Below, piece after piece: positions 4,341 through 63,351 of a DNA stretch of 64,000 nt (its first letter is position 1; every line of letters begins with the position of its first letter). The notes under the pieces are model-generated. The model was given only the letters and a program-made list of their open reading frames with translations. It ran no database searches and was not told the DNA's origin. The DNA is from a virus (Duplodnaviria; Heunggongvirae; Uroviricota; Caudoviricetes). The stretch covers positions 1 to 64,000 of the IMG/VR virus record IMGVR_UViG_3300027749_005140; one strand, given 5' to 3'. Both the position numbers and the translations under genes were made by a program.

Positions 4341-4385
4341 AAACACCCCTATTTTTTAATAGGGGTGTTTTTATTTATAATTTTT
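4341..4385 (+). terminator. rho-independent terminator
   Basis: aacacccctatttttt / aataggggtgtttttattt hairpin plus T-run. Confidence 0.7.
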
Positions 4386-29475: not shown

Positions 29476-29533
29476 TACTATAAAAATAACAAAAAAACAA
29501 AAAGAGAGAATAAACTTTTAATATATAATAACA

Positions 29534-29644
29534 ATGAGAACAAATTCAATACATACAAGCTTTAGTAAGTCGTTCAAGTGGTTTAGCCACAAGTTCGGAT
29601 GTATGAGTATGTCGTTCTCAAAAGAAGATGTTATTGTAGGATAA
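29534..29644 (+). CDS. leader peptide 1 (36 aa) of tRNA array 1
   Basis: MRTNSIHTSFSKSFKWFSHKFGCMSMSFSKEDVIVG; Lys/Phe/Trp/His codons mirror the downstream tRNAs. Confidence 0.45.
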   Translation: MRTNSIHTSFSKSFKWFSHKFGCMSMSFSKEDVIVG

Positions 29645-29674
29645 TGTCATAAAAGAGAATAAAACATAAACGTA

Positions 29675-29707
29675 AACCCGAACTTAAAATTAAGTTCGGG
29701 TTTTTTT
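29675..29707 (+). terminator. rho-independent terminator/attenuator 1
   Basis: aaacccgaactt aaaatt aagttcggg + ttttttt. Confidence 0.7.
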
Positions 29708-29955: not shown

Positions 29956-30044
29956 GGTGTTTGTAACCGGTAAAGGCAGCCGACCAGATTGTGAATCTGG
30001 AATGAATTAATTTTCTAATGCGGGTTCGAATCCCGTCTCACACC
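29956..30044 (+). tRNA. tRNA-His-like (anticodon GTG) with G-1 and expanded variable region
   Basis: Extra 5' G, anticodon loop ttgtgaa, T-arm gcggg ttcgaat cccgt; 19-nt variable region and two acceptor mismatches. Possibly degenerate. Confidence 0.35.
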
Positions 30045-30062
30045 CTAAATTCTCCCTCTAAA

Positions 30063-30195: not shown

Positions 30196-31233
30196 ATGAT
30201 AAGTTGTAAATTTTGTAAAAAAGTATATATAGGACGTAATAAAAATAAAGATGTTTTAATACATGAGTCCCATTGTATTCTAAATACAGATAGAGTACCA
30301 TATATATGTAATATATGTGATATGGAGTTTGATAAAAGACATTCTTTAATAGGACATAAAAGTCATTGCGGTAATTTAAAAGTTAGGAAAAAACGGATTA
30401 CAAAAGAGAAAGTAATTAAAATACACAAATGTAAATACTGTGATTCAATATTCGAAAATGGTTATAAATTGGGCGGACATGTATCACATTGTGATAGAGA
30501 TCCAGAATATGAAACTAAGAGGAGAAAAATGTGTGATAATATCTCTTTTCTTAATAAAGGAAAGAAATTATCAGATGAAACTAGAAAAAAAATATCAAAT
30601 AGTAGAAGAGAATATTTAAAAAATAATCCAGATAAAGTTCCCTATCTATTAAACCATAGTAGAAATGAATCATATCCTGAGAAATACTTTACTGATGTTT
30701 TTTTAGATAGAAATATTAGTGTAATAAAATCTTACAGAATTGGATTATATGAATTAGATTTTTGTATTTTAGATAAAAAAATAGATATAGAAATCGATGG
30801 TGGTCAACACTATTTAGATAATAAAATTATTGAAAGTGATAAAAGAAGAAATAAATATCTAGAAGATTTAGGTTGGGATATAATTAGAATAAAATGGAGT
30901 GATTATCAATTGTTGGATAAAGATTCTAAAAGAGAATTTATTGATAATATAATCTATTACATAAATGGTCTGGTAAAAACTAAACCAACATTTGAAATAT
31001 TAGATAATAAAAATTATTGTAAATGTGGTATAGAAATATACAAATGTTCTAAAATGTGTTCTAAATGTGATTCATTTAGACAAAGAAAAGTTGAAAGACC
31101 TTCATTAGAGCAAATTTTAAAAGATATAAAAGAAACAAACTATGTCTTGACCGGTAAAAAATATGGTGTTAGTGATAACACTATAAGAAAGTGGATAAGA
31201 CAATATAATGCGGATTTAGCTGAGACGGTTTAG
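30196..31233 (+). CDS. homing-endonuclease-like protein: 3x C2H2 zinc fingers + DUF559/Vsr-like PD-(D/E)xK nuclease + C-terminal HTH
   Basis: CxxC..HxxxH x3; YELDF..IDIEIDGGQHY..D.RR..L..GWDIIRIKW core; stop codon lies inside the D-loop of the following tRNA. Confidence 0.55.
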   Translation: MISCKFCKKVYIGRNKNKDVLIHESHCILNTDRVPYICNICDMEFDKRHSLIGHKSHCGNLKVRKKRITKEKVIKIHKCKYCDSIFENGYKLGGHVSHCDRDPEYETKRRKMCDNISFLNKGKKLSDETRKKISNSRREYLKNNPDKVPYLLNHSRNESYPEKYFTDVFLDRNISVIKSYRIGLYELDFCILDKKIDIEIDGGQHYLDNKIIESDKRRNKYLEDLGWDIIRIKWSDYQLLDKDSKREFIDNIIYYINGLVKTKPTFEILDNKNYCKCGIEIYKCSKMCSKCDSFRQRKVERPSLEQILKDIKETNYVLTGKKYGVSDNTIRKWIRQYNADLAETV

Positions 31234-31281
31234 CGTATGGTTGAAAGCCATAAGAGGTCAATTCGATTTTGACAATCCGCA
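31210..31281 (+). tRNA. tRNA-Phe (anticodon GAA), second gene
   Basis: Acceptor gcggatt/aatccgc, loop ttgaaag, T-arm gtcaa ttcgatt ttgac; 5' 24 nt overlap the endonuclease ORF. Confidence 0.5.
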
Positions 31282-31285
31282 CAAA

Positions 31286-31422
31286 TAGAAAGTAGCTCAA
31301 TTGGTAGAGCACGTAATCATACTTAGTCAGTCTTTCTCTAAGAAACTCTCTTAGTAGCAATGAAATAAGTTACTTCGCTCTGTTAAAGCCGTGGTTGTGG
31401 GTTCGAGTCCCACCTTTCTATC
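31286..31422 (+). tRNA. tRNA-like gene with ~65-nt internal insertion
   Basis: Perfect acceptor tagaaag/ctttcta, canonical D-arm tagctcaattggtagagc and T-arm gtggg ttcgagt cccac, but 87 nt between D- and T-arms. Confidence 0.3.
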
Positions 31423-31464
31423 AGATAAATAAAAACAAAGAATAAAATTTTAATATATAGTAAT

Positions 31465-31542
31465 ATGAAAACAATTATCACAACATCGTCAAGTTCGTCT
31501 AGTCGCTCAAGTAATTTGAGGGAGGTTCTGTTGTGCTCATAA
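31465..31542 (+). CDS. leader peptide 5 (25 aa), Ser/Arg-rich
   Basis: MKTIITTSSSSSSRSSNLREVLLCS; upstream of tRNA-Arg and three tRNA-Ser. Confidence 0.45.
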   Translation: MKTIITTSSSSSSRSSNLREVLLCS

Positions 31543-31564
31543 TTGATATAAAAAATTAGTATGA

Positions 31565-31609
31565 AACCCACAGACTTCAAAGTTTGTGGGTCTTTTGTTT
31601 TTAATTGGT
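31565..31609 (+). terminator. rho-independent terminator/attenuator 5
   Basis: aaacccacagact tcaa agtttgtgggtc + ttttgttttt. Confidence 0.65.
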
Positions 31610-31687: not shown

Positions 31688-31770
31688 GGAGGGTACCGCT
31701 AAGGTAGCAAACTGGGCTTGAACCCCAGGGGTACGGGCAACTGTACGGGTTTCGATTACTCTACCCTCTT
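31688..31770 (+). tRNA. tRNA-Ser (anticodon TGA), class II
   Basis: Acceptor ggagggt/accctct, stem ctggg/cccag, loop cttgaac, long variable arm. Confidence 0.5.
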
Positions 31771-31776
31771 CAGAAT

Positions 31777-31862
31777 AGTGAGTAAGCCTTGATGGTGATA
31801 GGGTCTGCCTGGAAAGCAGTACGTACGTTTAGATGTATAGGGTTCGATTCCCTTGCTCACTA
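31777..31862 (+). tRNA. tRNA-Ser (anticodon GGA), class II
   Basis: Acceptor agtgagt/gctcact, loop ctggaaa, long variable arm, T-loop ttcgatt. Confidence 0.45.
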
Positions 31863-31870
31863 CAAAATAT

Positions 31871-31956
31871 GGAGGATGAATTCACTGGGTAGTGGACGCA
31901 GTTTGCTAAACTGTTGGTGCGTTAAATCGCATTGGGATCGAGACCTACTTCCTCCG
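31871..31956 (+). tRNA. tRNA-Ser (anticodon GCT), class II
   Basis: Acceptor ggaggat/ttcctcc, stem gcagt/actgt, loop ttgctaa, variable hairpin tgcg ttaaat cgca. Confidence 0.4.
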
Positions 31957-37413: not shown

Positions 37414-38118
37414 ATGAAAATGAAAATGAATTTAGAAAAATTTAACTGGGGGTGGATGTATACAGAAGATGAGTCACATAAAAATCACATCATTTACGAA
37501 ATATTTGAAAGTAAAATATATGAAAAAATATTTGAGGTAGAATCTGGAGATATAGTGTTAGATGTAGGTGCCAGTATTGGTCCATTCACATATTCAATTT
37601 TAGATAAGAAACCTAAACACATATATTGTTTAGAACCAAGTGAATTACAGTTTCCAACTTTAATATCAAATACAGTAGGTCATCCAGTAACACCTATTTT
37701 AAAGGGTATTTCAAATATAAATTCATACGTTGATACCGAATTTCTTCATAAATTGAATTTACTTTTAGGTAATGATGAATCAAAAATGGAAGGCATTACA
37801 TTCAAAAAATTAAGACAAGTTTATAACTTAGAAAAAATTGACTTTTTAAAAACCGATTGTGAAGGTGGTGAATATGATATTTTTAATGAAGAAAATTTTG
37901 AATTTATTAAAAATAATGTTAAGAAAATATCAGGTGAGTGGCATTTAGGAAATACTGAGCTTAAAGAAAAATTCAGATACTTTAGAGACAATTACCTAGT
38001 TCAATTTGATAAAATAGAAGTATTCTCTGTAGATAATATTGATATTAAGTGGGACTTATGGAACGATCACTTTATTGATTATTACACCGAAATATTAATT
38101 CATATAGATAATCGTTAA
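37414..38118 (+). CDS. FkbM-family SAM-dependent methyltransferase
   Basis: VLDVGASIGPFT motif I and DFLKTDCEGGEYDIF typical of FkbM-family MTases. Confidence 0.55.
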   Translation: MKMKMNLEKFNWGWMYTEDESHKNHIIYEIFESKIYEKIFEVESGDIVLDVGASIGPFTYSILDKKPKHIYCLEPSELQFPTLISNTVGHPVTPILKGISNINSYVDTEFLHKLNLLLGNDESKMEGITFKKLRQVYNLEKIDFLKTDCEGGEYDIFNEENFEFIKNNVKKISGEWHLGNTELKEKFRYFRDNYLVQFDKIEVFSVDNIDIKWDLWNDHFIDYYTEILIHIDNR

Positions 38119-38181
38119 AAATATTTCAAAAATATCAAAAGGGAGAAAAACTTTTTAATATATAGAACTATAAACATATAT

Positions 38182-38251
38182 CGCGTTAAAGTGTAAAGGT
38201 TGCATGAGACTTTCATAAGGTCTACGGGGTGGTTCGAATCCACGCTACGCT
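38182..38251 (+). tRNA. tRNA-like, anticodon CAT (poorly folding, possibly degenerate)
   Basis: Anticodon arm agact ttcataa ggtct and T-loop ggttcgaatcc; acceptor and D stems weak. Confidence 0.3.
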
Positions 38252-38298
38252 ACAAAAGAGATAGGTAACGATTTAGATACAAGTCTCAAAAAATATAT

Positions 38299-38371
38299 CG
38301 CGGGATAGAGCAGTAGGCAGCTCGTGTGGCTCATAACCATAAGGTCGGAGGTTCGAGTCCTTCTCCCGCTA
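38299..38371 (+). tRNA. tRNA-Met/Ile2-like (anticodon CAT) with C1:U72 mismatch
   Basis: Acceptor cgcggga/tcccgct, D-arm gagcagtaggcagctc, stem tgtgg/ccata, loop ctcataa, T-arm ggagg ttcgagt ccttc. Confidence 0.55.
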
Positions 38372-38420
38372 CTAAAAGAATAAAAAATTAAAAAAGATTT
38401 GGTGGTTTAAAAACTTATCG

Positions 38421-38428
38421 TATCTTTG
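38421..38428 (+). promoter_or_regulatory. -7 promoter box TAnnTTTG of leader/tRNA module 3
   Basis: tatctttg upstream of leader ORF 3. Confidence 0.45.
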
Positions 38429-38496
38429 TACTCACAAGATGAGAGTCACATAAGTGACTAGAAGAATTAAAAACAACAATTTAAAAAATAGAAAAA

Positions 38497-38598
38497 ATGA
38501 CAACAATTACTAACATAACAATAGCTATCGAAGCCATAGGCGGGTATGAAGCGGGGTATATTATACCATCGGTCAGAAGCGTTATGTCTATAAAGTAA
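38497..38598 (+). CDS. leader peptide 3 (33 aa), Ile/Thr/Gly/Glu/Tyr/Ala-rich
   Basis: MTTITNITIAIEAIGGYEAGYIIPSVRSVMSIK; resembles thr-operon leader; codons ATA, GAA, GGC/GGG, TAT, GCN match the downstream tRNAs. Confidence 0.45.
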   Translation: MTTITNITIAIEAIGGYEAGYIIPSVRSVMSIK

Positions 38599-38627
38599 TG
38601 AGTTGAAAAAAACATTATTATATAACA

Positions 38628-38667
38628 AACCCAATCTGACTTAAAAATCAGATTGGGTTTTTTTATT
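38628..38667 (+). terminator. rho-independent terminator/attenuator 3
   Basis: aacccaatctga cttaaaaa tcagattgggtt + tttttt. Confidence 0.7.
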
Positions 38668-38682
38668 GAATTAAAAGTACAA

Positions 38683-38767
38683 GGGAGTACGCCGGAGTTG
38701 GAGAGCCGGAGCGGTCTGTAACACCGTTGGCATTACGCCTGAGTAGGTTCGAGTCCTACTACTCTCA
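38683..38767 (+). tRNA. tRNA-Tyr (anticodon GTA), class II
   Basis: Acceptor gggagta/tactctc, stem gcggt/accgt, loop ctgtaac, variable arm, T-arm gtagg ttcgagt cctac. Confidence 0.6.
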
Positions 38768-38773
38768 CAAAAT

Positions 38774-38841
38774 AAAAGTGACTATGTGCGGGTCGAAAGA
38801 CTTGAAAAGCCAACCGAAATAGTCTAACGTGGTCACTTTTT
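38774..38841 (+). other. extended imperfect hairpin flanked by A-run and T-run
   Basis: aaaagtgactat ... atagtc taacgt ggtcactttttt; not a tRNA (no T-loop). Confidence 0.3.
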
Positions 38842-38848
38842 AGAATAT

Positions 38849-38921
38849 GGTGTATTCGTCTAGTGGTAAGGATTACGCTTTTTCAAAGCGGAGGACGTCG
38901 GTTCGAATCCGACATACACTA
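38849..38921 (+). tRNA. tRNA-Glu (anticodon TTC)
   Basis: Acceptor ggtgtat/atacact, D-arm tcgtctagtggtaaggat (Glu-like), loop ttttcaa, T-arm gtcgg ttcgaat ccgac. Confidence 0.5.
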
Positions 38922-38925
38922 CAAA

Positions 38926-38987
38926 TGTAAGTAGAGCTCCGGTGACTTCTACCTAACCGGGCATTGTGCTTGAGTAGAAGACTTACA
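38926..38987 (+). other. nested hairpin element between tRNA genes
   Basis: tgtaagt..cttctac..gtagaag..acttaca nested inverted repeats. Confidence 0.25.
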
Positions 38988-38991
38988 AAAT

Positions 38992-39066
38992 GCTGCTATC
39001 GTCTAACGGTAGGACAACATCTTCTCAAGGTGTGAGATACGGGTTCGATCCCCGTTAGCAGCACCA
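38992..39066 (+). tRNA. tRNA-Glu (anticodon CTC) with encoded CCA
   Basis: Perfect acceptor gctgcta/tagcagc, loop ttctcaa, T-arm acggg ttcgatc cccgt, followed by a cca. Confidence 0.55.
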
Positions 39067-39182
39067 AACAGATACTTGAGTGCAAGCAAGTTATAGTATC
39101 AGTCGTTAGGTCCTTGCAGACAGTGAACGGTGGTCCGAATGTCATTATTCGGTGGTGGATACCAGGCAACTCCATCATATAT

Positions 39183-39254
39183 GATCCGGTCTTCTAATGG
39201 TCAGGAAGCAAGGTTTTCATCCTTGTAATCAGGGTTCGATTCCCTGTCGGATTA
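39183..39254 (+). tRNA. tRNA-like, anticodon TTC (Glu-like; G1:U72 and G7:U66 wobbles)
   Basis: Acceptor gatccgg/tcggatt, stem caagg/ccttg, loop ttttcat, T-arm caggg ttcgatt ccctg. Confidence 0.4.
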
Positions 39255-39264
39255 CAAAAAAAAT

Positions 39265-39338
39265 TGGTAAGTAGCTTAGACGGTAGAAGCATCTGTCTTA
39301 TACACAGAAGATAGTGGGTTCGATACCCACCTTACCAA
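39265..39338 (+). tRNA. tRNA-Ile (anticodon TAT)
   Basis: Acceptor tggtaag/cttacca, stem tctgt/acaga, loop cttatac, T-arm gtggg ttcgata cccac. Confidence 0.55.
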
Positions 39339-39345
39339 CAAAATC

Positions 39346-39419
39346 GCGGGAGTCGTATAATGGCTCGATTATGCTGGCTTTCCACGTCAGAGACGAGGGT
39401 TCGATTCCCTTCTCCCGCA
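39346..39419 (+). tRNA. tRNA-Gly (anticodon TCC)
   Basis: Acceptor gcgggag/ctcccgc, stem ctggc/gtcag, loop tttccac, T-arm gaggg ttcgatt ccctt. Confidence 0.55.
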
Positions 39420-39428
39420 CCGCATAAT

Positions 39429-39502
39429 GCAAATGTATATCAATTGGTAGATAGTCTCGTTGCCAACGAGAAGGCTTGCGGGTTCGAGCCCCGTCATTTG
39501 CT
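39429..39502 (+). tRNA. tRNA-Gly (anticodon GCC)
   Basis: Acceptor gcaaatg/catttgc, stem tctcg/cgaga, loop ttgccaa. Confidence 0.6.
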
Positions 39503-39600
39503 CAGTAGAAGTGGTTTAAGTTATAGAAATCTCTATATCTAAGACGTTAGATGTAAATTTTTATACACCACTTTAATTATAAAGATAGTAGTAATATAAA

Positions 39601-39700
39601 GCGTTACTTCGTATTCAAACGACTATTATAGGTTCGAATCCTATTGTCCGCACAAATAATTAAATTGCGGATATAGTGTAATGGTAGCACAGTAAAATAC
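39601..39700 (+). other. two orphan tRNA halves: a 3' half (T-arm + acceptor 3') lying upstream of a 5' half (acceptor 5' + D-arm); their acceptor strands are mutually complementary
   Basis: ...ataggttcgaatcctat tgtccgc a (39628-39652) and gcggata ta gtgtaatggtagcac (39667-39690); tgtccgc pairs perfectly with gcggata. Confidence 0.25.
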
Positions 39701-39728
39701 GCTTAATAAACTTTCTCTATCTTATTTT

Positions 39729-39800
39729 GGGGCTATCGTATAATGGCTATTACACAGGGTTTGCAACTCTGATATTCCGGATCGTCCCCGGATAGCTCCA
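39729..39800 (+). tRNA. tRNA-Ala-like (anticodon TGC) with non-canonical T-loop
   Basis: Acceptor ggggcta/tagctcc (G3:U70 present), stem caggg/ctctg, loop tttgcaa, T-arm tccgg atcgtcc ccgga. Confidence 0.45.
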
Positions 39801-39977
39801 CAAAAAATAAAAAATAGATATGAAAACTAAAGAACAGTCGCTGGACGCATTTTAGTCACAGAAGAATATAAATCTTACTGTGACGGTAATAAAACAGAAA
39901 GAATTAAAAGATCATTAGTAAAAAATGGTTCACGTAATGATAGAAAATTACAAAAATATTCTGATAAATTTAACAAA

Positions 39978-61253: not shown

Positions 61254-61309
61254 TACTATAAAAATAACAAATAAACAAAAAGAGAGAATAACATCTTAAT
61301 ATATACAAT

Positions 61310-61390
61310 AATGAAAACAACTAATCTAAATATTAACTTAACGCTGAATGTCTTATGTCTAAGACGTGAACCGGGTTTTGCCTTATTTAG
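61310..61390 (+). CDS. leader peptide 2 (26 aa), Leu/Asn/Arg-rich
   Basis: MKTTNLNINLTLNVLCLRREPGFALI; codons CTA, TTA x3, CTG, CTT, AGA, CGT match the downstream Arg(TCT) and Leu tRNAs. Confidence 0.45.
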
Positions 61391-61439
61391 AGCAAATGAT
61401 AATGTTATTGGATAACATATTATAACTAAATATACAAAC

Positions 61440-61472
61440 AAAACCCGAAATCTAAAAGTTTCGGGTTTTTTT
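61440..61472 (+). terminator. rho-independent terminator/attenuator 2
   Basis: aaacccgaaa tctaaaa gtttcgggtt + ttttttg. Confidence 0.7.
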
Positions 61473-61735: not shown

Positions 61736-62002
61736 ATGAAAGAAATAGATTATATACAGTACACATCATATACATTATTATCAAGTGGTAATGTATTTAA
61801 GGTAAATTCAGTTATGCCTTTACAAAGTTTAGACAAACACTTGAATGAAAGTACAAACTTAATTATGTTTGTAGTTCATAATATAAAGTGTAATGATAAA
61901 GAAGTAATGGTTTATAATAGAGATCTATTTAGATTTACATATGGATCAAAAGAATGTCCTGAAATGATTATGAAAATGAAACATTCACATATATTAGAAT
62001 AA
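61736..62002 (+). CDS. hypothetical protein embedded in tRNA array 3
   Basis: 88-aa ORF between tRNA genes. Confidence 0.3.
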   Translation: MKEIDYIQYTSYTLLSSGNVFKVNSVMPLQSLDKHLNESTNLIMFVVHNIKCNDKEVMVYNRDLFRFTYGSKECPEMIMKMKHSHILE

Positions 62003-62004
62003 TG

Positions 62005-62228: not shown

Positions 62229-62314
62229 TACTCTGTAATAATACAGAGAGTGTTTTACACTACTATAAATAAAGATAAACAAAAAGGGACAATAAAAATT
62301 TAATATATAATATA

Positions 62315-62404
62315 ATGAAAACAAATACTGTAAATATTAATGTGATTACGATTACGAATTGTGTGAATAACACGACTTCGGGTAAGCGATTATGTATAGT
62401 ATAA
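62315..62404 (+). CDS. leader peptide 4 (29 aa), Asn/Thr/Val/Ile/Cys-rich
   Basis: MKTNTVNINVITITNCVNNTTSGKRLCIV; AAT/AAC, ACN, GTA/GTG, ATT, TGT codons match the downstream Asn, Thr, Val, Ile, Cys tRNAs. Confidence 0.45.
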   Translation: MKTNTVNINVITITNCVNNTTSGKRLCIV

Positions 62405-62430
62405 ACTCATATATTATATACAATTTATAA

Positions 62431-62466
62431 AGACCCGAACTCAAAAAGTTTGGGTCTTTTCTTTTA
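62431..62466 (+). terminator. rho-independent terminator/attenuator 4
   Basis: aagacccgaac tcaaaa agtttgggtctt + ttcttttat. Confidence 0.7.
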
Positions 62467-62551: not shown

Positions 62552-62639
62552 TACTGGGTTGCCATAGCCAGGTCGAATGGTTCGGACTGTTAATCCGATG
62601 AGCATCGCTCCACCGTGGGTTCGAATCCCACCCCAGTAG
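62552..62639 (+). tRNA. tRNA-like, anticodon GTT, with class-II-length variable hairpin (atypical)
   Basis: Perfect acceptor tactggg/cccagta, stem tcgga/tccga, loop ctgttaa, variable hairpin gagc atc gctc, T-arm gtggg ttcgaat cccac. Confidence 0.35.
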
Positions 62640-62647
62640 CAATACAT

Positions 62648-62728
62648 TGGCACATACCAGCCCAACCTGATAAGTTGGAGAACTGTAGCGGTACGTTGAA
62701 AACGTGGGTTCGAATCCCTCTGTGCCAA
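62648..62728 (+). tRNA. tRNA-Ile-like (anticodon GAT) with atypical architecture
   Basis: Acceptor tggcaca/tgtgcca, anticodon arm ccaac ctgataa gttgg (loop identical to bacterial tRNA-Ile); D region too short and 26 nt between anticodon and T arms. Confidence 0.35.
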
Positions 62729-62924: not shown

Positions 62925-62998
62925 ATACCTTGGTCGGTATATCAATTGGTTTAGATTATCACGCTGATACCGTGAAGGTTGCGAGTTCGAGTCTCGCA
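62925..62998 (+). other. degenerate tRNA-like element (T-arm only)
   Basis: gcgag ttcgagt ctcgc T-arm and cggtat/ataccg pairing, but no anticodon arm or acceptor 3' strand. Confidence 0.25.
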
Positions 62999-63007
62999 CA
63001 AAAATAT

Positions 63008-63095
63008 GGCATAGTGTCTGAGTGGTCGAAAGATGCGGTCTGCAAAACCGTAATGATTAAGTTCATCATCGTAGGTTCAAATCCTACCTATGCTT
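63008..63095 (+). tRNA. tRNA-Cys (anticodon GCA) with expanded variable hairpin
   Basis: Acceptor ggcatag/ctatgct, stem gcggt/accgt, loop ctgcaaa, variable atga ttaagt tcat, T-arm gtagg ttcaaat cctac. Confidence 0.5.
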
Positions 63096-63102
63096 CAATA
63101 AT

Positions 63103-63265: not shown

Positions 63266-63346
63266 GCTAGTGTGGCCCAGTGGCGACGGCACTTCCCTTG
63301 TAAGGAAGAAATAAAAACACCGCAGGTTCGAGTCCTGTCACTAGCT
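63266..63346 (+). tRNA. tRNA-Thr (anticodon TGT) with 13-nt A-rich variable region
   Basis: Perfect acceptor gctagtg/cactagc, stem cttcc/ggaag, loop cttgtaa, T-arm gcagg ttcgagt cctgt. Confidence 0.55.
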
Positions 63347-63351
63347 CAACA

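Follow-up and report, generated by a model that had tools for sequence, protein, structure and literature searches.

Why should a bacteriophage place a short open reading frame (ORF) in front of its own tRNA genes, and spell in it the amino acids that those tRNAs carry? The question is raised by a locus of the virus record IMGVR_UViG_3300027749_005140 (Caudoviricetes), of which positions 1 to 64,000 were analysed (the window). This is phage DNA in which a tail-spike, virion proteins and NAMPT are encoded. On its + strand, at 38398-39801, lies the focal module, in which a leader ORF and an intrinsic terminator precede eight tRNA genes (Table 1). A preliminary description of the locus had proposed an attenuation-type leader that mirrors the tRNAs downstream. 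This proposal is supported by the terminator, by four sister modules in the window, by a leader/array match that is specific to the reading frame and by a terminator arm that co-varies with its leader. We consider the unit to be a ribosome-mediated attenuator of transcription that acts on a phage tRNA operon, a reading to which we assign a probability of about 70%.

Leaders and the tRNA arrays behind them

The eight tRNA genes of the focal array have Rfam RF00005 scores of 38.8-66.1 bits and all of them were called by ARAGORN as well. Thus, the identities and anticodons which had been named from hand folds, including that of tRNA-Ile(UAU), were confirmed throughout. After its Met the leader has 32 residues; 18 of these are Ile, Ala, Glu, Gly or Tyr, against 30% expected from the long ORFs of the window (binomial P = 1.4e-3). 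An unbroken stretch of 15 residues, IAIEAIGGYEAGYII, consists solely of these five amino acids of the focal array. The Ile codons are ATA (five), ATT (two) and ATC (one); the earlier codon counts stand, except that the ATC had been left out. AUA had been regarded as a rare codon. It is not rare in this phage genome, as ATA accounts for 37% of the Ile codons in the long ORFs of the window. The rare codons of the leader are GGC, GGG (twice), GCC and GCG, each making up 3-8% of its codon family in phage genes. Thr, too, had been counted as part of the match; however, the N-terminal Thr codons of the leader fall outside of it because the focal array has no Thr tRNA. In L056, a syntenic viral contig of 105 kb that carries the focal module, the leader ortholog has kept its frame with two amino-acid changes.

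The window holds five leader-terminator-tRNA modules, the focal one and sister modules A to D. Each leader is enriched in the amino acids of its own array, with P = 5.6e-3, 1.9e-5, 1.4e-3 (focal), 1.3e-2 and 1.2e-7 in positional order when the amino-acid frequencies of the long ORFs of the window serve as background. Among the 120 permutations of the five leaders and arrays the true pairing ranks best. The array of module D has, in addition, two Ile(GAU)-like elements.

Table 1. Coordinates of the focal module, of its sister modules and of the putative promoter elements in the window.
Feature	Position	Strand	Remarks
Putative host-type promoter	38398-38428	+	TTTG (38398-38401), 19 nt, TATCTTTG (38421-38428)
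Leader ORF	38497-38598	+	33 codons and TAA; encodes MTTITNITIAIEAIGGYEAGYIIPSVRSVMSIK
Regulatory codon run	38506-38565	+	codons 4-23 of the focal leader
Unbroken Ile/Ala/Glu/Gly/Tyr stretch	38521-38565	+	codons 9-23; cognate tRNA in the array for each
Region 2, GGUCAGA	38571-38577	+	codons 25-27; proposed 5' strand of the antiterminator, pairs with UCUGACU (38635-38641)
Predicted inner imperfect hairpin of the antiterminator	38581-38630	+	stem holds the stop codon (38596-38598); minimum-energy fold without the terminator 3' arm
Intrinsic terminator	38627-38667	+	13-bp stem AAACCCAAUCUGA / UCAGAUUGGGUUU (38627-38660), 8-nt loop, U7 tract
tRNA-Tyr(GUA)	38683-38768	+	ARAGORN, Rfam
tRNA-Glu(UUC)	38849-38922	+	ARAGORN, Rfam
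tRNA-Glu(CUC)	38992-39066	+	ARAGORN, Rfam
tRNA-Glu(UUC), second copy	39183-39255	+	ARAGORN, Rfam
tRNA-Ile(UAU), AUA decoder	39265-39339	+	ARAGORN, Rfam (66 bits)
tRNA-Gly(UCC)	39346-39421	+	ARAGORN, Rfam
tRNA-Gly(GCC)	39429-39503	+	ARAGORN, Rfam
tRNA-Ala(UGC)	39729-39801	+	ARAGORN, Rfam
Sister module A	29534-29703	+	leader MRTNSIHTSFSKSFKWFSHKFGCMSMSFSKEDVIVG (29534-29644), contains FSKSFKWFSHKF; terminator 29674-29703; then Lys, Trp, Phe, His, Lys
Sister module B	31465-31591	+	leader MKTIITTSSSSSSRSSNLREVLLCS, contains SSSSSSRSS; terminator; then Arg(ACG), Ser x3
Sister module C	61311-61469	+	leader MKTTNLNINLTLNVLCLRREPGFALFRANDNVIG, contains LNINLTLNVLCLRR; terminator; then Arg(UCU), Leu x4
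Sister module D	62315-62459	+	leader MKTNTVNINVITITNCVNNTTSGKRLCIV, contains MKTNTVNINVITITNCVNNTT; terminator; then Asn x2, Val x2, Cys x2, Thr x2
Second motif sites	29505-29527, 31437-31459, 61283-61305, 62286-62309, 38140-38164; near 4382, 21092, 26598(-), 57250(-)		probable phage-specific promoter

Relatives were collected by motif scans of viral and metagenome contigs, followed by a pipeline in which a terminator had to lie <=80 nt upstream of a tRNA and a small ORF had to end upstream of that terminator. Since the initial motif scan lacked specificity, with tRNA arrays at about 25 of 118 loci, a tighter pattern was then used. The pipeline yielded 79 modules with 56 distinct leaders, on contigs of up to 597 kb, all of which share the promoter motif. 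A neighbouring 234-aa methyltransferase-like protein was tried as another route to relatives and discarded; it led to 55 loci, none with a tRNA and none syntenic. Chance matches in AT-rich genomes were all that the motif scan of cellular genomes yielded; none had >=2 tRNAs, and hence they gave no clue to the host.

Among the 41 complete distinct modules the cognate leader/array pairs have a mean z of 3.82, compared with 0.12 +/- 0.28 for shuffled pairs, and none of 20,000 shuffles reached this value. The fraction of array amino-acid types that are present in the own leader is 1.00, as opposed to 0.62 for shuffled pairings. The leaders have 16-39 codons, the stop codon lies 18-32 nt upstream of the terminator and the first tRNA follows the terminator after just 4-40 nt (median 17 nt); therefore, the arrays can be transcribed only by readthrough of the terminator.

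Leader content follows the splitting and merging of arrays. In contig L177 the focal module is split, and a leader with MTTVTTYYYEAYEE / MTTVTTYYYEAYEEHS stands before three Glu tRNAs and Tyr, another with MKTLNITIAIIGGGAGAG before Ile(UAU) and Gly. In L189 a leader with MKTTHKIEAIGYAYEAG precedes Tyr, Glu, Ile(UAU), Gly and Ala; in L127 one with IYIGYIAEGGYEAG precedes Glu, Tyr and Gly. In L067 and L106 two arrays are merged, and the leaders are merged likewise. The leader of L192, with MKAISVHIIHIWEHLLEEV (HIIHIWEHLLEEV), is followed by His, Glu, Val and Trp, and further leader families belong to Asp/Pro/Gln (NPQPQVVVDQDQDPD) and to Gln alone (QYQQQQ). The published genome LR745206.1 (634,780 bp) has a leader with MNTITNIASYESYYEEG, including SYESYYEEG, for Glu/Tyr, and a second one with ISIAVIGNGAGA / MKNLNNISIAVIGNGAGA for Ile(UAU), Gly, Met and Gly. 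It is one of the deposits LR745206/LR7565xx, which we take to be the huge-phage set of Al-Shayeb et al. (2020).

The match is confined to one reading frame: z is 3.82 in frame 0, but about -0.4 in either of the remaining frames and close to 0 for the reverse strand. This makes it very improbable that the ORF is a chance, untranslated product of AT-rich DNA. Such an origin would suit its shortness, the missing Shine-Dalgarno motif and the modest third-position excess of leader substitutions (354/449/566 at codon positions 1/2/3). However, simple arithmetic on long-ORF frequencies gives the 15-residue run a chance probability of about 2e-7, and all 56 leaders, whose distance from the terminator is fixed, are open for 16-39 codons. 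A Shine-Dalgarno motif was found in 0 of 40 long ORFs of the window, which are all A-rich upstream; the focal leader start (aaaaaatagaaaaaATG) has the same A-rich context as these real genes. A modest third-position excess is what is expected if codon identity and RNA pairing, not the peptide, are selected.

Terminator, proposed antiterminator and ribosome position

The focal terminator, first found by a consensus scan for intrinsic terminators, ends 15 nt before the array. With tRNA-Tyr starting at 38683, a promoter would not fit between terminator and array. As a whole the focal leader has a far more stable fold than its shuffled versions (z = -4.0). Inside the ORF, region 2 is complementary to UCUGACU, i.e. 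the last five bases of the terminator 5' arm and two bases of the loop, where the terminator hairpin would nucleate; the predicted helix has 7 bp and -9.3 kcal/mol. In the fold calculated without a ribosome the focal arm is paired with P = 0.71, whereas shuffled sequences give 0.43 +/- 0.13 and 0 of 60 reach 0.71. The antiterminator layout with its inner hairpin is common to all modules of the YE(I)GA family that were folded, and clearer helices occur in the family at the same relative position (L127 -16.1, L189 -12.0, L323a -12.2, L177a -11.0 and L177b -11.1 kcal/mol).

The complementarity is not peculiar to this family. The ORFs of modules A, C and D each contain a segment that is complementary to the terminator 5' arm with about -11 to -12 kcal/mol (P <= 0.016 versus shuffles); in module A it is 29590-29599, at -11.9 kcal/mol. 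Over 52 modules the mean pairing energy of a leader is -10.8 kcal/mol with its own arm and -6.9 kcal/mol with foreign arms, i.e. arms less than 70% alike (Wilcoxon P = 3e-9), and across modules arm pairing is more frequent than in shuffled controls (P = 5e-6). The segments that pair differ widely by family: CGGGUUUU / AAAACCCG, CUGAGGGUUU / AAACCCUCAG, AAGUUCGG / CCGAACUU, GAACUUGG / CCAAGUUC, GAGUUUGGA / UCCAAACUC, GACUAACUG / CAGUUAGUC and AUCCGA / UCGGAU.

These data bear on another explanation, namely that ORF and terminator form a separate, constitutive unit of a micropeptide and an insulating terminator, that the tRNAs arise from a fixed leaky readthrough and that the codon match has some other cause. 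The very strong terminator (13 bp, U7) and the weak focal antiterminator would agree with it. Yet the peptide sequences are wholly different between families, and only the array-matching composition and the position of region 2 are kept, so that the peptide sequence itself is probably not a target of selection. Leader content shifts with the splits and merges of arrays, and complementarity to the own terminator is kept through many different sequences. We therefore regard a constitutive unit as quite unlikely.

The effect of ribosome position was calculated on RNA that starts at the AUG and ends with the terminator loop, folded with the 3' arm omitted and a ribosome footprint of 30 nt masked at each codon in turn. 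In the focal module pairing of the arm stayed at about 0.7 with the A site at codons 2-22, dropped to 0.0-0.3 at codons 23-30 and was 0.37 with the ribosome at the stop codon. Over 51 modules the arm was predicted to be paired at about 0.6-0.9 as long as the A site was in the codon run and, in nearly every module, to be freed just past the run. The permissive zone, in which a stall would leave the antiterminator free, holds 82% of the cognate versus 55% of the other codons (Fisher P = 1e-25). This bias supports the classical direction, in which a stall would lead to readthrough.

The opposite logic would have smooth translation of the leader cause readthrough and a stall cause termination, as a positive feedback or a competence check. 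In its favour, arm pairing in modules A, C and D returns to the ribosome-free value with the ribosome at the stop codon, and the final three cognate codons of module A (CAC AAG UUC) overlap region 2, such that a stall there would mask it. The distribution of cognate codons argues against it, as does the switch point, which in almost all modules falls at the 3' end of the codon run. The focal, Ser/Arg and Gln modules keep a lower arm pairing at the stop codon (focal 0.37 vs 0.71), and a positive feedback on tRNA supply would have no obvious benefit. The reversed switch thus appears unlikely.

From the layout and the folds we infer that the attenuator would operate as follows. Transcription would begin near 38430 from a host-type promoter, and a ribosome would start on the 33-codon leader. 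A shortage of charged tRNA-Ile(UAU), Glu, Gly, Tyr or Ala would stall the ribosome in codons 4-22, and region 2 (38571-38577), left unoccupied, would pair with the terminator 5' arm on its loop-proximal side, aided by the inner hairpin with the stop codon. The terminator would be blocked and RNA polymerase would continue into the eight tRNA genes. If the tRNAs are plentiful the ribosome would clear the codon run, cover region 2 and melt the inner hairpin; the 13-bp terminator could then form and transcription would stop 15 nt before tRNA-Tyr. As the tRNAs made would relieve the stall, the unit would constitute a negative feedback on tRNA supply. A 1:2 anti-antiterminator hairpin was not found, and the ribosome-free RNA is predicted to form the antiterminator; for an untranslated RNA readthrough is predicted.

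Does the leader sense its tRNAs, or amino-acid starvation, i.e. uncharged tRNA in general? In the latter case it would be an ordinary amino-acid attenuator that came to lie ahead of tRNA genes by chance. A stalled ribosome cannot tell a missing from an uncharged tRNA, and classical attenuators respond to charging. Nevertheless, codon choice tracks the isoacceptor: ATA provides 13 of 19 Ile codons before arrays with Ile(UAU) and ATT 10 of 14 before arrays with Ile(GAU) (Fisher P = 0.037), AGA predominates in leaders with Arg(UCU) downstream and CGC goes with Arg(ACG). Moreover, extra tRNA is no cure for amino-acid starvation, so the output would mismatch the input. Starvation as the actual signal is in our view improbable.

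Several points weigh against an attenuator. The focal antiterminator is among the weakest, with 7 bp of which two loop nucleotides are a required part, and if the arm alone is considered the focal leader pairs no better with its own (-7.4 kcal/mol) than with foreign arms (-8.7 kcal/mol), as the ACCC present in all arms offers a partner for its GGG codons. MAFFT alignment with RNAalifold of the YE(I)GA and KWFH leaders gave no common antiterminator. Region 2 slides and is not positionally homologous between families, which explains this result; for the same reason support for the antiterminator comes from repeated complementarity, not from column-wise covariation. The folds are thermodynamic estimates for truncated RNA and do not simulate kinetics. 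Some families have their stop codon far from region 2, and there the model requires that the ribosome lags behind RNA polymerase by roughly 60-100 nt or acts as a steric block at the stop codon. Finally, the relatives, as they were found via a shared promoter motif, represent one clade of non-independent lineages.

On balance we lean towards a wider interpretation. A clade of huge phages, probably infecting Bacteroidota, would have almost its entire complement of elongator tRNA genes arranged in six or seven leader-gated operons, each composite leader spelling the tRNA set of its own operon; this would be the first attenuator that senses its own gene product, and by it the phage would detect and replace lost host tRNAs.

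Putative promoters and unusual tRNA-like genes

The sequence at 38398-38428 fits the Bacteroidota -33/-7 consensus TTTG-N19-21-TAnnTTTG. This pattern occurs 12 times in the window where 3.1 are expected, and 0 of 100 shuffles reach 12. The site is conserved in L056 and L177 and we infer that it acts as a promoter. A second motif, AGAGAATAAACTTTTAATATATA, precedes the ATG of the other leaders by 4-7 nt, as it does at several ordinary genes, and has the form (A/G)GAGA(A/C)ATAAA(N)TTTTAATATATA. It is probably a phage-specific promoter and may possibly give rise to leaderless mRNAs. In LR745206.1 a tRNA-Met directly follows the second motif. In the window a tRNA-like element at 38182-38252 (+; Rfam 24.7 bits, under the threshold of 29) lies 17 nt past the motif at 38140-38164 and ahead of tRNA-Met(CAT) (38299-38372); neither this element nor the tRNA-Met has a leader in front. 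The 5' untranslated region of the focal leader contains, relative to L056, an insertion of 30 nt at 38443-38472 (+) with a small hairpin (AGUCAC AUA AGUGACU) and a mini-ORF of 4 codons.

Within the focal array the spacers among the first four tRNAs (38769-38848, 38923-38991 and 39067-39182, +) are 69-116 nt long, whereas spacers in the rest of the window measure 6-10 nt. Inverted repeats can be made out in them by eye, e.g. AAAGUGAC...GUCACUUUUU; these long spacers gave no Rfam family and, with ARAGORN at low threshold, no credible tRNA. Between tRNA-Gly(GCC) and tRNA-Ala(UGC), at 39583-39728 (+), lies what looks like a circularly permuted tRNA-like gene, which is also present in L056 and L323 (LR745206.1, about 369033-369175). 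Its order is T arm and acceptor 3' strand (UGUCCGC, 39645-39651), a 14-nt spacer, acceptor 5' strand (GCGGAUA, 39667-39673) and D arm. The acceptor strands pair at 7 of 7 positions and co-vary, with GCAGAUA/UGUCUGC in L056 and GUCGGUG/CACCGGC in LR745206.1, and the flanking leader and trailer helices co-vary too. In its native order the gene was not called by ARAGORN or Rfam. After rotation ARAGORN returned a cloverleaf with a long variable arm for all three sequences; the anticodon, AAA or GAA, is uncertain. A search of the full-text literature, with subscription-only literature outside its reach, gave no report of permuted tRNAs in phages.

The sister arrays have peculiarities as well. Behind leader B two tRNA-like genes with a long arm (31690-31775 and 31870-31955, +) were missed by ARAGORN with default settings and by Rfam at the gathering score. 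Judged by eye their anticodon loops are those of Ser(UGA) and Ser(GCU), and together with Ser(GGA) at 31777-31863 they cover every Ser codon type in leader B. Ahead of this leader, between it and tRNA-Phe (31210-31282), the intron option of ARAGORN calls a tRNA-Met(CAT) at 31286-31422 (+) with a 56-nt insertion in the anticodon loop. An ORF of 345 aa with Cys/His-rich repeats (30196-31233, +) lies within a tRNA array, its 3' end overlapping the start of tRNA-Phe; the sole match is a PHROG of unknown function. Another ORF of roughly 87 aa (61740-62003, +) is located between Leu(AAG) and Leu(CAA). The two atypical tRNA-like elements of module D (62648-62728 and 62938-62997, +) score 34.6 and 37 bits with Rfam, the second matching model positions 8-63 only. 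Their CUGAUAA or CUGAUAC loop suggests by eye the anticodon GAU (Ile); they occupy the place of tRNA-Ile(GAU) in the relatives and are matched by ATT codons in leader D. tRNA-His (29957-30045), Asn (62552-62640), Cys (63008-63096) and Thr (63266-63347; all +) have 82-89 nt with extra sequence in the variable region, which is unusual for their types.

Comparison with known systems

Leader-peptide attenuation is textbook knowledge for amino-acid biosynthesis and for a synthetase, not for tRNA genes. In the full-text literature, with subscription-only literature outside the search, we found no description of leader peptides or attenuators ahead of tRNA genes. Large genomes with tens of tRNA genes, like that of the focal phage, are a feature of T4, the Lak megaphages and huge phages. 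In the regions fetched from Lak-B1, LR756500, LR756501 and LR756504 the tRNAs are not grouped behind leaders and terminators. If our interpretation is correct, phages would regulate tRNA genes on demand via a codon-resolved sensor of tRNA supply, which would be a concrete, testable answer to the long-standing question of when large phages express tRNAs of their own, and for what reason. A phage could in this way detect a loss of host tRNAs, be it from codon-usage mismatch, host shut-off or anticodon-nuclease defences. The units would then also be natural biosensors for the availability of individual tRNAs, and a leader would predict the identity of odd tRNA-like genes, as with the Ile(GAU)-like elements of module D and the ATT codons of its leader.

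The preliminary description had likened the focal leader to that of the E. coli thr operon. The resemblance is one of composition alone, Thr not being a sensed codon. Homology to thrL or Thr_leader was rejected, with no Rfam match, no Thr tRNA in the array and no biosynthetic genes downstream. More generally, neither the window at the gathering score nor 38100-39900 at E <= 5 gave a match to a leader, T-box or riboswitch family of Rfam.

T-box riboswitches resemble the phage unit in that translation-related genes are controlled by a choice between terminator and antiterminator which depends on the state of a specific tRNA. A T-box, however, binds uncharged tRNA directly and requires neither ribosome nor ORF, whereas the phage unit would use a leader ORF. 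T-boxes are not known to act on tRNA genes. In E. coli the pheM leader attenuates pheST, which encodes phenylalanyl-tRNA synthetase; here a gene of the translation apparatus is regulated and charged tRNA is sensed. There the target is a synthetase, a single amino acid is involved and the genome is cellular, whereas the phage units have tRNA genes and several amino acids.

The closest parallel is with the trp, his, leu, thr, ilv and pheA attenuators of enterobacteria. Like the focal unit they consist of a short ORF, in which regulatory codons form a run, and an intrinsic terminator after it. In both the 5' arm of the terminator can pair upstream and ribosome position picks the hairpin, which for the focal unit is a prediction. 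The differences are as follows. Amino-acid operon attenuators regulate biosynthetic enzymes; the focal unit would regulate tRNA genes, and the sensed molecule would be its own product. Unlike them the phage leaders report up to about eight amino acids at once, and their stop codon is located 6-15 codons past region 2, inside the inner hairpin. Lacking a 1:2 hairpin, untranslated phage RNA is predicted to be read through where a trp-type leader terminates, a departure from trp and not from the class in general. The phage unit would thus work like the trp, his and thr attenuators, and it is not related to them.

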